This document shows positions 10,586 to 44,472 of a DNA stretch of 64,000 nt, piece by piece (the stretch's first letter is position 1; every line of letters begins with the position of its first letter). The position numbers and the translations under genes are program-made. The stretch is taken from positions 28,302 through 92,301 of the forward strand of contig DCWL01000006.1 in the NCBI GenBank assembly GCA_002327585.1. The letters run 5' to 3'. This DNA is from Candidatus Phycocordibacter aenigmaticus (GTDB lineage: Bacteria; Patescibacteriota; Minisyncoccia; Phycocordibacterales; UBA2163). The notes beneath the pieces are model-generated. The model ran no database searches. It had not been told where the DNA came from and saw only the letters and a program-made list of their open reading frames with translations.

Positions 10586-11137
10586 TTATTTTATCCTTCT
10601 TCTATAAAAATCTGCTAGAAATATATTTTTTGTGAACGTACCAGCTGGTAGACCTACTAAAACTATCCACATGATAAAAAATATTAACCCTAACAATATA
10701 CTTTTTAGTAAAACCATAATATAATCTCCCAAATTATTAAAAACATATTTCATTATTCTAAATTCAAAAAAGGAATTGACTGTCATTTTATTTATAAAAT
10801 TTATGGATAATATGGGGATTATAAAGAGCTCAAAAAAAATACGAGATGCTTCTAGCCAGGGATGTATTCTTGAAAGAATAATAATAAGCAGTATATACAT
10901 TAATATAAAAGGAATAGATTTTAAGAACATAAAAAATCCTAGTTTTAAATCATTTTTAAATTCAAGAATTGGTAATTTTTTAAATCTTCCTTTACTAAAT
11001 TCTTGAACAATTCTGATGCCATACCCACTTAAAGTAAACCAGCCAATGATTGGTAAGAATAACCATAAGATATTCCACATTCCCTTTGCTCTATTAAAAG
11101 GATATTTGAAAGCGGTTTTAAAATTTAATTCAGTCAT
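10586..11137 (-). CDS. hypothetical polytopic membrane protein
   Basis: 183 aa, several hydrophobic helices; flanked by ~40-bp direct repeats. Confidence 0.5.
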   Translation of the reverse strand: MTELNFKTAFKYPFNRAKGMWNILWLFLPIIGWFTLSGYGIRIVQEFSKGRFKKLPILEFKNDLKLGFFMFLKSIPFILMYILLIIILSRIHPWLEASRIFFELFIIPILSINFINKMTVNSFFEFRIMKYVFNNLGDYIMVLLKSILLGLIFFIMWIVLVGLPAGTFTKNIFLADFYRRRIK

Positions 11138-15704: not shown

Positions 15705-16247
15705 CTAAAAATTGCCGGTTATTTTTATCGAGAACTTAATATCACGATCAGAGGCAAGATTGGATACCGGAAGTTCTACATCTCTAAACTGCTTCTCCCT
15801 CTCAAGAAGTTTTTTAAATTCAAGAAGTGACTCTCTAGAATCCGCTTCCCCCGTCACAAGCATTTCTGTTTCTTTTCCAAATTGGCTTTTTTTATAAAAT
15901 ATACCGTTTATTCCGACTCCACCGAGTTTATTGTCCAAAACTCTCTCAAAGAGATCCTTTAAAGAAATATTCTTTTCGTCAAATGAGAGAAGTTTCAATT
16001 TTTCTTTCGTTTCAAGCAAAACAGTGCTTGATACCTCCTGCTCTCTTTTTGCAACCGATTCTTTTATAATATCCGAGTGTTCTCTTGTCGCACTCTCTTT
16101 TGACTCTGATATAAAATATGATGGTATAAGCTGTGCTCCTGCGGCTAAAATCGTAAAAAATAAAAACATGAGCACCATTATCGCAATACGAAGCTTATAT
16201 TCGCTACACAGTATTTTTTTATCCTCCTGTGACAATAGATTTCGCAT
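15705..16247 (-). CDS. type IV pilus assembly protein PilN-like
   Basis: 180 aa, N-terminal TM; follows pilM. Confidence 0.45.
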   Translation of the reverse strand: MRNLLSQEDKKILCSEYKLRIAIMVLMFLFFTILAAGAQLIPSYFISESKESATREHSDIIKESVAKREQEVSSTVLLETKEKLKLLSFDEKNISLKDLFERVLDNKLGGVGINGIFYKKSQFGKETEMLVTGEADSRESLLEFKKLLEREKQFRDVELPVSNLASDRDIKFSIKITGNF

Positions 16248-17839: not shown

Positions 17840-18433
17840 TTTAAATCTCCTTTCAAAAAAGTTAAAAGAAATGATAATTTTTATTTAATTCAAAGAACAT
17901 TCTGTTTCGCTCTTTTAAGCTCATCAGTCAAGATAGACATCTTGATACAGAGAGGTTTTTAAAGAGACCTCAACTCTGCACTTCTGTTGCCGAGACGTTT
18001 GCGTGCCTCCGCCCAGTAGGACTTATTTATAATTTACGTCATTTTTTTTCTCCTAAAAAGTTAGATTTCTTTCTCTAGCTCTTTGGCTAGAAATAAAATT
18101 ATTTCCTTCTTTTTAAGATACTTATGTTGAAAACATAACATATCTACATTATTTGTCAATAGCTGTGTTCAGTAAGTCTGGATGACTTAATTTAGCTATT
18201 TTATATAAATAGTTTATTCTTTTTAACATAGTTGCATATATTATCCAAAATTTTTTCAAAATCTTTATATTTAATCCAATCGTTCTTGATTTTCACTTTT
18301 AATCCTCCGAAAAAATAAAATTTATTAAAGAACAAATCGGGAACTTTCCCTTTCAGAAACTTGAAATTATTCAAATCTCTGAAAGAGAGGCCGCACAAGA
18401 GAGTGGGTTTTAAGAGTTGCCCTTTAGCATTTA

Positions 18434-24670: not shown

Positions 24671-25135
24671 ATGGCAATACAACTTCAGTGGAGTGCGTTT
24701 GAGCATGAGCATATACATAAAAATTCCGACTGGTTCTGGGCTCTAGGAATTGTTGCTATTGCCGGAGCAGTAATGGCAATTATTTTCAACAATATATTGT
24801 TTGCAATCGTAATTTTACTCGGCGCTTTTGTGCTTGGAATACATGCATCAAAAAGACCAAACCGTGTAGACTTTAAAATAATTCAGCGTGGCATCGTCAT
24901 CGGCAATGTCCTGCATCCATATTCATCATTGGAATCATTCTGGGTTGAAGATGTAGATGAAAATACAGCTCCAAAGCTTTTAATAAAATCAAAAAAACTT
25001 CTTGCTCCTCATATTATTATCCCAATAGAGGATGTATCTCCAAATGATGTGCGCAATTATCTTTTAGAATATTTAGTTGAAGAAGAAGATAGTGAATCTC
25101 TCGTGCAGAAAATCATGGAATTCTTCGGCTTTTAA
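24671..25135 (+). CDS. hypothetical membrane protein
   Basis: 154 aa, two TM helices. Confidence 0.45.
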   Translation: MAIQLQWSAFEHEHIHKNSDWFWALGIVAIAGAVMAIIFNNILFAIVILLGAFVLGIHASKRPNRVDFKIIQRGIVIGNVLHPYSSLESFWVEDVDENTAPKLLIKSKKLLAPHIIIPIEDVSPNDVRNYLLEYLVEEEDSESLVQKIMEFFGF

Positions 25136-36834: not shown

Positions 36835-37055
36835 AAGATTTGCCTCCGCAAGCTTCGCTTGCTATAGCGAGACAAGTCCAGATCATGAATCTCTAAGCAA
36901 TGCTTTTAATAGTGATACTAAAAGTGAGCACCTCATTTGAGGATAGCTCGAGCGAACCTAACCAAAGTCAGAACCAAAACGTCCTTAACAAGGGCATCGA
37001 TTTGCTTAGAGATTCATGCTCTTGATTGTATGTAATGTAGCATAAAAAATAGCTT

Positions 37056-38084: not shown

Positions 38085-38612
38085 ATGTCTGGTCACAGCA
38101 AATGGTCAAAAATAAAACACAAGAAAGCACTTACTGATGCCAAAAAAAGCAAAGTATTTTCAAAACTTGTTCGGTTTATTGAAGTTGAGTCAAAAAAAGC
38201 GGGGGGTGATGTAGAATCCCCTGGAGTGCGCCTTGCGATTGAGAGGGCGCGCGCCGCAAATATGCCCTCGAACAACATCAATCGCGCGATAGCCAAAGGA
38301 AAAGAGGGAGGGGGTGCGAATATGGAGAATGTTCTTTACGAGGCCTACGGGCCAGGAGGTTCTGCAATAATAATTGAAGGCCTCACCGACAGTAGAAACA
38401 GAACTGCCGCGGAGATAAAATATTTACTTAACAAGCATGGAACCCAACTCGCTGCGCAAGGCGCGGCAGCTTGGGCATTTGAAAAAGTTGACGAGAAGTG
38501 GAGTCCCAAAACAGTCGTTTCAATTTCAGAGGAAGATGGTGAAAAACTTATGAAACTCATCGAAGAACTTGAAGACCACGACGACGTGCAGGGGGTGTAT
38601 ATAAACGTGTAG
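38085..38612 (+). CDS. YebC/PmpR (TACO1) family protein, short form
   Basis: MSGHSKWSKIKHKKA N-terminus and DDVQGVY C-terminus match YebC; central domain missing (175 aa). Confidence 0.65.
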   Translation: MSGHSKWSKIKHKKALTDAKKSKVFSKLVRFIEVESKKAGGDVESPGVRLAIERARAANMPSNNINRAIAKGKEGGGANMENVLYEAYGPGGSAIIIEGLTDSRNRTAAEIKYLLNKHGTQLAAQGAAAWAFEKVDEKWSPKTVVSISEEDGEKLMKLIEELEDHDDVQGVYINV

Positions 38613-38680
38613 ATAAGTTATAAGATTAACTCTAACTTTATATTCCTCAGCACAATATTTATTACCATTAAAATAAAAAA

Positions 38681-38702
38681 GATCACCATATTTTTGGTGA
38701 TC
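38681..38702 (+). terminator. terminator hairpin after yebC-like gene
   Basis: gatcacca..tggtgatc 8-bp stem, U-rich downstream. Confidence 0.45.
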
Positions 38703-38724
38703 CTATCTCTTTTACTCTTATTAT

Positions 38725-39125
38725 AATGACACTCCCAAGAGGAAACAAAACTTCTTGCTCCTCTTGGGGCGTCAGACAGTTGCAACTCGACCCTAGTTGC
38801 CGGCGTGCCCCATTACGTACAAGCTCCGATGTGTAAGACTGTCACTACACTGGCTTGATTCCGACGTGCCTCGGTACAGCAATTCCTTGTTTATGCTCCA
38901 TGGATGAGTGACCGAGAAATCATCCCATGCGCCCAAGTCAACCTGACTTGGAATTCGACACATTACTATGTCTCCTATTGTATAGTTATGTATTCCTATA
39001 CAACCCTAATGAGTGCTCACCCATAACCGGAGGGCTTCTTTCTGTGGTTTCCTGCAAGTATCCCATCAGCGACACTTGCAACTAATATAATATTAGCCAC
39101 TTAAAGTACTAACTGTGGATAGTTT
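38725..39125. ncRNA. candidate structured non-coding RNA of unknown class
   Basis: ~400 bp with no ORF in six frames, conspicuously GC-richer than surroundings, many nested inverted repeats; strand undetermined. Confidence 0.35.
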
Positions 39126-39185
39126 AGCATGCTTTATTTTATTTGTCAAGGAGTAAAACCTCTTCCTAAAATGTACTATGTACAT

Positions 39186-44161: not shown

Positions 44162-44472
44162 TTTATTCTTTCTCCTCTTCAAAATAAGATTAAATGAGGT
44201 AAAATTAATTATGGTTTTTACCGTACTTCTGTTGGAAAGTATATCATGCCTATACCATTTGTCAAACACACCTAAAAACCATCTTGCTCACAGTGGAAAA
44301 CATGAAACAATTATTCAGTTGCCAATAATTGGATTCTTCCTTATAATTAAACTAATGGGTAGTAAACTGCACGAGTTGAGGAAACCTCTTTTTTGAAATG
44401 TGTAACCTCCTTTCCCGAGAGGCGCCATCTAAGAATGGCTACGTCAACCCAACTCGTGCCAACTTATTTTTA

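Follow-up and report, generated by a model that had tools for sequence, protein, structure and literature searches.

Horizontally acquired genomic islands encode trans-acting small RNAs (sRNAs), and typical base-pairing sRNAs measure 50-250 nt. Larger structured RNAs include the class A RNA of ribonuclease P (RNase P; RF00010), whose ends are paired in a closing helix, transfer-messenger RNA (tmRNA; ssrA; 350-400 nt), whose termini are also paired, and the orphan large non-coding RNAs (ncRNAs) OLE, ROOL, GOLLD and raiA. These orphan RNAs, defined by many covarying homologues, were found as GC-rich intergenic regions free of open reading frames (ORFs) in AT-rich genomes (the approach of the Breaker laboratory, PMC8632094). 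Here we consider a GC-rich, ORF-free tract between yebC and ruvC of Candidatus Phycocordibacter aenigmaticus, a member of the Patescibacteria or candidate phyla radiation (CPR), in a stretch of 64,000 nt from contig DCWL01000006.1 that was analysed as a whole and is called the window below; unless another locus is named, coordinates are positions in it. The tract fits a stand-alone bacterial gene for a structured ncRNA; it belongs to no described family and is one sequence, not a class. We put at about one half the probability that the minus strand here encodes a structured ncRNA of about 440 nt in a gene of its own, specific to the lineage and carried as accessory cargo.

Like the orphan large ncRNAs, the tract is GC-rich and ORF-free, has a multi-branched predicted fold and appears independent of the downstream gene, but unlike them it has no covarying homologues and matches none of their Rfam models. 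It shares with island-encoded, acquired trans-acting sRNAs an accessory site between core genes, a promoter and a Rho-independent terminator of its own (both predicted) and a strain- or species-specific distribution. Unlike those sRNAs, it is much longer and more elaborately folded, and it has no convincing target: the search for trans-acting targets returned a 17-nt perfect antisense match at 24994-25010 (plus strand, within the coding sequence 24671-25135) to the apex of the predicted 3' hairpin (GAGGAGCAAGAAGUUUU), a length reached by 6 of 3000 shuffles but also by 10 of 144 real window segments (7%), so that the match lies within chance and was judged not significant.

The gap without a credible ORF extends over 573 bp, from 38613 to 39185, between the yebC stop (38612) and the ruvC ATG (39186), and is thus wider than the tract at 38725-39125 which the earlier note had singled out from the sequence as a possible structured RNA without an ORF. 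It is flanked by a short yebC (38085-38612) and by ruvC (Pfam PF02075), the true start of which is likely 39186 (NCBI annotation: RuvC of 159 aa). Within the gap, the longest ORF that begins with ATG has 56 aa and the longest stop-free run 70 codons. A log-odds score for codon usage, with the 28 long ORFs of the window as training set, came to -0.11 to +0.03 for every stop-free stretch of the gap, compared with a median of 0.36 and a first percentile of about 0.00 for real 56-codon gene segments (yebC 0.42, ruvC 0.38). The tract has no three-base periodicity in GC content, no gene is called in it by four independent assemblies, and a search of 5.8 billion proteins with a pseudo-protein concatenated from its six frames gave no hit at E ≤ 10. 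The tract is therefore real and non-coding, as had been proposed. The description of it as much GC-richer than its surroundings is right in relation to the genome mean and the spacers, though not for all of the genes nearby: in 200-nt windows its GC content is 0.43-0.48, as opposed to 0.28-0.34 in the adjoining AT-rich spacers and 0.363 in the whole window, whereas neighbouring coding sequence such as yebC reaches 0.45-0.55.

The strand, left unassigned in the earlier note, is most likely the minus strand, given the promoter, the terminator, the excess of G over C, the G-U pairs and the stronger minus-strand fold. A predicted RNA promoter at 39149-39121 (minus) combines TTGACA, a 17-nt spacer and the TG-extended -10 element TAAACT, and it would place the start of transcription near 39114-39113, at the first bases of the closing helix P1. 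A perfect TTGACA together with a TG-extended -10 occurs at only 8 sites on the two strands of the 64-kb window (8 of 42 sites, or one per 16 strand-kb), and the signature of the RNA promoter, TTGACAAAT...ATGnTA, is common to most of these 8 strongest sites and to two near-matches without the TG. Throughout the window this strong-promoter signature takes the form TTGACAAAT-N(8-10)-ATGnTAnnnT, for example at 44265, 39149, 37062, 34051, 33076 and 18159, all on the minus strand, and three of the sites precede non-coding regions. At the opposite end, an intrinsic terminator is predicted at 38704-38670 (minus), its 10-bp stem (AGGAUCACCA/UGGUGAUCUU) leading into a U-run; seen from the plus strand (38681..38702), this hairpin makes a terminator-like site behind yebC, though its T-run is poor. 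A promoter-like site for ruvC at 39143..39172 (plus; TTGTCA, 18-nt spacer, TAAAAT) is a consensus match only, and its -35 element overlaps that of the RNA promoter back to back, an arrangement that would make the two promoters divergent. A DnaA-box-like sequence, CTATCCACA, coincides with the putative transcription start as a single 8/9 match. In composition, the plus strand of the tract is C-rich (GC skew -0.15 to -0.22), with G at 0.27 and C at 0.19 in the core read on the minus strand, and 12 of the 113 predicted pairs of the minus-strand core are G-U pairs.

The self-complementarity noticed by eye proved genuine, both in the stems themselves and in folding statistics beyond the range of 80 control windows from the same 64 kb (mean z -0.75, standard deviation 1.24, minimum -3.5). 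Structures were predicted from the single sequence. A minus-strand segment of 461 nt has a minimum free energy (MFE) of -160.2 kcal/mol, compared with -119.5 +/- 6.2 for its shuffles (z -6.5), and the plus strand has an MFE of -127.3 kcal/mol (z -4.9); for the 400-nt tract the z-scores are -8.0 on the minus strand versus -4.6 on the plus strand. About half of the signal in the 400-nt fold is due to a 21-bp 3' hairpin, since the structured core without it, 341 nt at 38776..39116 (minus), has an MFE of -112.7 kcal/mol, against -93 +/- 5 for shuffles (z -3.9; none of 100 shuffles folded as well). For the plus-strand core z is -2.3, and 3 of 100 shuffles equal it. All six stems listed in the earlier note are present where it placed them: CCCAAGAGGA/TCCTCTTGGG (38734-38743 with 38759-38768), GGGGC/GCCCC (38765-38769 with 38807-38811), CCAAGTCA..TGACTTGG (38933-38951), TTGTATAG/CTATACAA (38979-38986 with 38997-39004), CTCGGT/ACCGAG (38870-38875 with 38911-38916) and CATGGATGA/TCATCCCATG (38899-38907 with 38920-38929).

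In the predicted minus-strand fold, the core is closed by helix P1 (39116-39107 with 38784-38776). A 5' branched domain at 39038..39106 (minus) follows, consisting of a hairpin CUAAUA/UAUUAG and an 11-bp hairpin UUGCAAGUGUC/GAUACUUGCAG, with pair probabilities of 0.87-0.95, and leads through an A-rich junction (ACAGAAAGAAG, minus) to the P2 domain (38790..39035, minus). The long-range helix of this domain (39035-39005 with 38817-38790) would enclose hairpin A (39004-38977), hairpin B with a GUAA tetraloop (38972-38957) and hairpin C (38951-38933), all on the minus strand; pair probabilities are 0.83-1.0 for P2 and hairpins A to C, while the central region of the domain, at 38932-38818, is poorly defined (0.13-0.30). 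This central region includes hairpin D, CAUGGGAUGA/UCAUCCAUG (38928-38898, minus, within a feature at 38870..38928), the loop of which, CUCGGU at 38916-38911, is complementary to ACCGAG at 38875-38870. A pseudoknot may form there, but a 6-nt match is expected by chance about once in 8 cases and is too short for significance, so that the pairing is a lead only. Beyond the core, the long 3' hairpin of about 21 bp (UGACGCCCCAAGAGGAGCAAG...UUUGUUUCCUCUUGGGAGUGUCA) spans 38774-38727 (minus).

About 160 Paceibacteria loci share the gene order ruvB-yebC-ruvC, in many of them with tyrS next on the opposite strand. The insert between yebC and ruvC, to which no strand is assigned as a unit (38613..39185), is absent from the nearest relatives: the two genes are 21 bp apart in locus L005 (RuvC identity 81%) and 2 bp apart in L006 (75%). 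Elsewhere the junction holds other cargo, which comprises a putative toxin-antitoxin pair and a small secreted coiled-coil protein in L009 (RuvC identity 76%), a 118-aa secreted protein in L013 (74%), MazE and ParE in L175 (78%), and further unrelated small ORFs in other lineages, including L018, L025, L036, L069, L077 and L173. The junction protein of L077 is four-helix-bundle-like; this label and the toxin-antitoxin label for L009 are a reading of the sequences and not the outcome of a family search. With the junction empty or otherwise occupied in relatives, the 573-bp unit represents an insertion at a cargo hot spot and not an ancestral feature, and the ruvB-yebC-ruvC cluster as a whole is such an insertion hot spot. 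In L009 a GIY-YIG ORF lies between ruvB and yebC. The YebC protein itself has 175 aa only; residues 1-175 align over their full length across Paceibacteria loci (L005-L091), and in Pfam its second and third domains are matched by just part of the profile. The short form seems to be clade-wide.

Searches for relatives of the tract were made at several levels. It is 100% identical in four contigs (the marine metagenome-assembled genome GCA_977285895.1 and Tara Oceans contigs). Among 167 Paceibacteria loci (about 2 Mb), nhmmer and blastn returned only the window itself, as did a covariance model (R1) built from the single sequence of the 246-nt P2 domain. On the same loci nhmmer recovered a clade sRNA in 43 genomes, which indicates that a conserved RNA at or near this site would be detected. 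Nothing was found by blastn against phage and plasmid collections, no relative by six-frame pseudo-proteins used as degenerate DNA probes against viral, genome and metagenome collections, and nothing by tblastn when the relatives' cargo proteins (the L009 pair, MazE and ParE of L175, and the small secreted proteins) were compared with the tract; for exact 18-mers, the viral contigs yielded two matches, both inside phage genes and ascribed to chance. The genome and metagenome collections do not contain the source contig itself and the searches detect fairly close sequence relatives only, so that absence from the wider biosphere is not established by them. Two other Paceibacteria lineages carry strongly folding, ORF-free, GC-rich inserts of their own in the cluster, one of 298 nt between yebC and ruvC in L045 (3639-3936; minus-strand z -5.8 to -7.5) and one of 528 nt between ruvB and yebC in L085 (4124-4651; z -7.5). 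These are unrelated to each other and to the tract, match nothing in Rfam and have no homologue in the 2 Mb of loci.

Known RNA families were examined on both strands. At gathering thresholds, Rfam 15 identifies only tRNAs in the window, and at E ≤ 10, over an 801-nt region and over the whole window, it gives nothing relevant in the tract. ARAGORN detects 11 tRNAs in the window but no tmRNA, either there or in the 2 Mb of related loci. Motifs for RNase P CR-I and CR-V, the tmRNA T-loop, the signal recognition particle (SRP) RNA and the group I intron core are absent from the tract even with generous mismatch limits, which bears out the observation by eye that the hallmarks of RNase P RNA and tmRNA are lacking.

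The tract resembles class A RNase P RNA in length, in the pairing of its ends in a closing helix, in the succession of a 5' hairpin domain, an A-rich junction and a long-range helix, and in having its own promoter and terminator, which are here predicted. Unlike that RNA, it has no match to RF00010 at E ≤ 10 (gathering score 100 bits), no P4 consensus and no room for P15-P18, for which the predicted fold leaves 3 nt. Some RNase P RNAs of the CPR need thresholds far below the Rfam cut-off (PMC8172020), and we therefore sought a control specific to the clade. In L017 (Campbellbacteria), positions 15724-16034 encode a class A RNase P RNA that scores 104.6 bits with RF00010, a compact molecule of 311 nt and GC content 0.32 with a perfect GAGGAAAGUCCGGGC and a canonical P4. 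The helix P4 is formed by CR-I and CR-V, whose consensus we take to be GAGGAAAGUCCGGGC and ACAGAAnnCGGCUUA, as the L017 RNA confirms; in the tract neither has a match within 3-4 mismatches on either strand. With tmRNA the tract shares a length of 350-400 nt, paired termini, a long P2-like helix over several hairpins and a possible pseudoknot. Unlike tmRNA, it has neither a T-arm nor an acceptor or CCA end, and it lacks a reading frame for a tag; no tRNA-like domain or T-loop stands at the right place, only 5 nt lie between P2 and the 3' strand of P1, and neither ARAGORN nor the Rfam tmRNA clan gives a match.

Other candidates fared no better. 6S RNA, about 180 nt long, is a rod made up of a closing stem, a central bubble and a terminal stem, as opposed to the multi-branched fold of at least 340 nt predicted here. 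A group I intron, which would interrupt a host gene and contain the P3-P7 core, does not agree with an intergenic tract that has a predicted promoter of its own, no R/S-like motif and no match to RF00028 or any other Rfam family. Riboswitches and cis-acting leaders belong to the transcript of the gene under their control and precede it on its strand. As such an element on the minus strand, the unit would end at a terminator facing antisense yebC, and no cis-regulatory Rfam family matches it; on the plus strand, the promoter-like site of ruvC lies downstream of the structure.

If the tract is an ncRNA gene, its transcription, the stability of the RNA and any function are what we infer from the sequence, and the following course of events may be envisaged. 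RNA polymerase would start near 39114 at a promoter of the genome's own strong type, and the transcript would fold into a multi-branched core with its 5' end locked to nt ~330-340 by helix P1, followed by the long 3' hairpin and then the intrinsic terminator, with the transcript ending near 38672. The 573-bp unit would sit as accessory cargo in the yebC-ruvC junction and would rewire local transcription, in that the hairpin would terminate the ruvB-yebC message and the divergent promoter would restart ruvC. The likely role would be that of a stable trans-acting RNA, for instance a protein-binding scaffold or a regulator, drawn from the accessory gene pool.

Several observations weigh against an ncRNA gene. 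The nearest relatives lack the tract at the yebC-ruvC site, no homologue that could show covariation or purifying selection was found anywhere searched, and the flanking proteins have no variants at ≥90% identity in the database. Generic promoter-like hexamers are not enriched in the AT-rich region (2 found, 2.6 expected). The core z-score of -3.9 is just about 2.6 standard deviations past the window background, and simple palindromes in other Paceibacteria spacers score z -8 to -16 on both strands, so that the fold statistic is supportive and not decisive. What sets the tract apart from such palindromes is the strand asymmetry of its predicted pairing, with its 12 G-U pairs, together with a modelled fold that is branched and not hairpin-only.

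The main rival to an ncRNA gene, and one that we consider a real though lesser possibility, is a non-functional remnant, that is, acquired or decayed DNA such as a dead cargo gene, in which structure, promoter and terminator have no selected role. The earlier note had itself named a lack of conservation as a sign of a pseudogenised remnant, and the tract is indeed absent from all relatives examined and without a homologue in any collection searched. The site holds unrelated lineage-specific cargo elsewhere, the inserts of L045 and L085 show that unrelated ORF-free, GC-rich DNA does occur in the cluster, the core z-score is moderate, and three stop-free stretches tile the minus strand as they would in a frameshifted gene. 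A decayed gene is hard to reconcile with codon usage that is poor in every frame, with the missing periodicity and with the absence of similarity to any protein, the cargo proteins of relatives included. Moreover, the GC content of the core (0.46) is above the mean of the genome's own genes (0.48/0.32/0.32 by codon position) despite mutation pressure towards AT, which argues against old decay, and the position of a promoter of the native strong type fits the start of the closing helix precisely, a proper terminator goes with it on that strand, and the fold, including strand-specific G-U pairs, favours the strand as well.

At the opposite extreme, the tract could represent, as its first known example, a class of large structured RNAs in the accessory genome of the CPR that has yet to be described. 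This we hold to be unlikely. The earlier note took a lack of conservation or covariation in relatives to refute its suggestion of an undescribed structured RNA, which accordingly survives as a single-species candidate and not as an RNA class. Were it nonetheless to be true, RNA-only cargo of this kind (e.g. a ribozyme, or a protein-sequestering or defence-related RNA) would occupy a toxin-antitoxin hot spot, and the inserts of L045 and L085 could be analogous elements.

A non-autonomous mobile element, similar to a miniature inverted-repeat transposable element (MITE) or derived from the IS200/IS605 type, with hairpins acting at the level of DNA, is very unlikely. The discrete insertion relative to relatives, the richness in hairpins, the long palindromes in several Paceibacteria spacers and imperfect AT-rich inverted repeats of 14-15 nt near the ends (38664-38685 versus 39130-39146; 80-86% complementary) all agree with such an origin, but the repeats at the ends are AT runs of low complexity, with no sign of a target-site duplication. 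The unit is also single-copy in the 64-kb window and missing from the roughly 2 Mb of Paceibacteria loci, genes for a transposase or for TnpB/IscB are absent nearby, and the asymmetry of the G-U pairs points to pairing in RNA and not in DNA.

Translation of the 56-aa ORF at 38963-38793 (minus), either as a small protein gene or as part of a dual-function RNA, is also strongly disfavoured. A Shine-Dalgarno-like AGGAG stands 8 nt before its ATG, in a junction predicted to be single-stranded; against this, its codon score of -0.11 is below the first percentile of real 56-codon segments, JGI, ENA and NCBI leave it uncalled, and it has neither a Pfam family nor a homologue. Still less probable is a plus-strand cis element, a structured 3' untranslated region of yebC or 5' leader of ruvC that would regulate ruvC. 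The tract does have a plus-strand gene on either side, the two being co-linear neighbours in relatives, and in full it folds better than its shuffles on that strand (z -4.6 to -4.9), but the plus-strand core, with its weaker z of -2.3, is matched by occasional shuffles, C is abundant on the plus strand, the structure lies upstream of the ruvC promoter-like site, no riboswitch or leader of Rfam matches, and the relatives manage without the tract. Finally, a highly divergent housekeeping RNA (RNase P RNA, tmRNA, SRP RNA or 6S RNA) that moved to the site, an identity of the kind the earlier note had listed as possible, can be given next to no weight despite a size of 340-440 nt and paired termini as in RNase P RNA and tmRNA, the very low thresholds required by some CPR RNase P RNAs (PMC8172020) and the failure of Rfam to recognise even the clade's conserved 6S-like sRNA, because the Rfam, ARAGORN and motif searches are negative, the topology has no space for P15-P18 or a T-arm, Paceibacteria RNase P RNA is canonical in L017, a 6S-like candidate already lies 1.7 kb away, and a housekeeping RNA would be expected in relatives, where none was found at the site or as a homologue.

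Other RNAs and small genes were encountered in the course of the analysis. An sRNA of about 165 nt at 36860-37027 (minus), divergent from ruvB and with its promoter at 37062-37034, is conserved immediately upstream of ruvB in 43 different Paceibacteria loci. Its fold is a 6S-like rod comprising a long closing stem (AUAAAUCUCUAAGCAAU/AUUGCUUAGAGAUUUAU), an asymmetric region in the centre, an inner stem and a small hairpin on the 3' side. In its alignment 93.6% of cells are paired and 24 of 37 pairs have compensatory changes; none of 500 shuffles did as well, and in slid-partner controls 37-51% were paired. Rfam gives no match to it at E ≤ 10, and it is probably either the 6S RNA of the clade or an undescribed family. 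A sub-threshold match to the type III hammerhead (Hammerhead_3; 35.9 bits, gathering score 48.5, E 0.0005) at 17899-17953 (minus) contains the full core (CUGAUGA, GAAA and the GUA cleavage triplet), with a stem I of 7 bp and a stem II of 4 bp; it lies in an ORF-free gap (17840-18433), with a strong native-type promoter (18159-18132) about 170 nt upstream of it and the start of a minus-strand gene (17837) about 60 nt downstream. Just downstream of ruvC in relatives, a gene for a tiny, very acidic peptide (MDEDTMIHDSELDE...) is conserved in L006 (6664-6789), L009 (6612-6722) and L029 (about 10690-10860); the peptide has 36-41 aa in L006 and L009 and is longer in L029. A DnaA-box-like TTATCCACA comes before this gene, which is equipped with a promoter and a terminator of its own. 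The gene is missing downstream of ruvC in the window, where ruvC overlaps tyrS.

The genomes of CPR bacteria, or Patescibacteria, are tiny and densely coding, and their ncRNAs are barely catalogued; Rfam misses conserved RNAs of the clade, the 6S-like sRNA upstream of ruvB being one example. As a single-species candidate, the tract is of value mainly as a target for metatranscriptome mapping and for wider sequence searches. If it is what we propose, a folded RNA of 440 nt with its own strong promoter would mean that the accessory gene pool of these episymbionts includes RNA-based functions.

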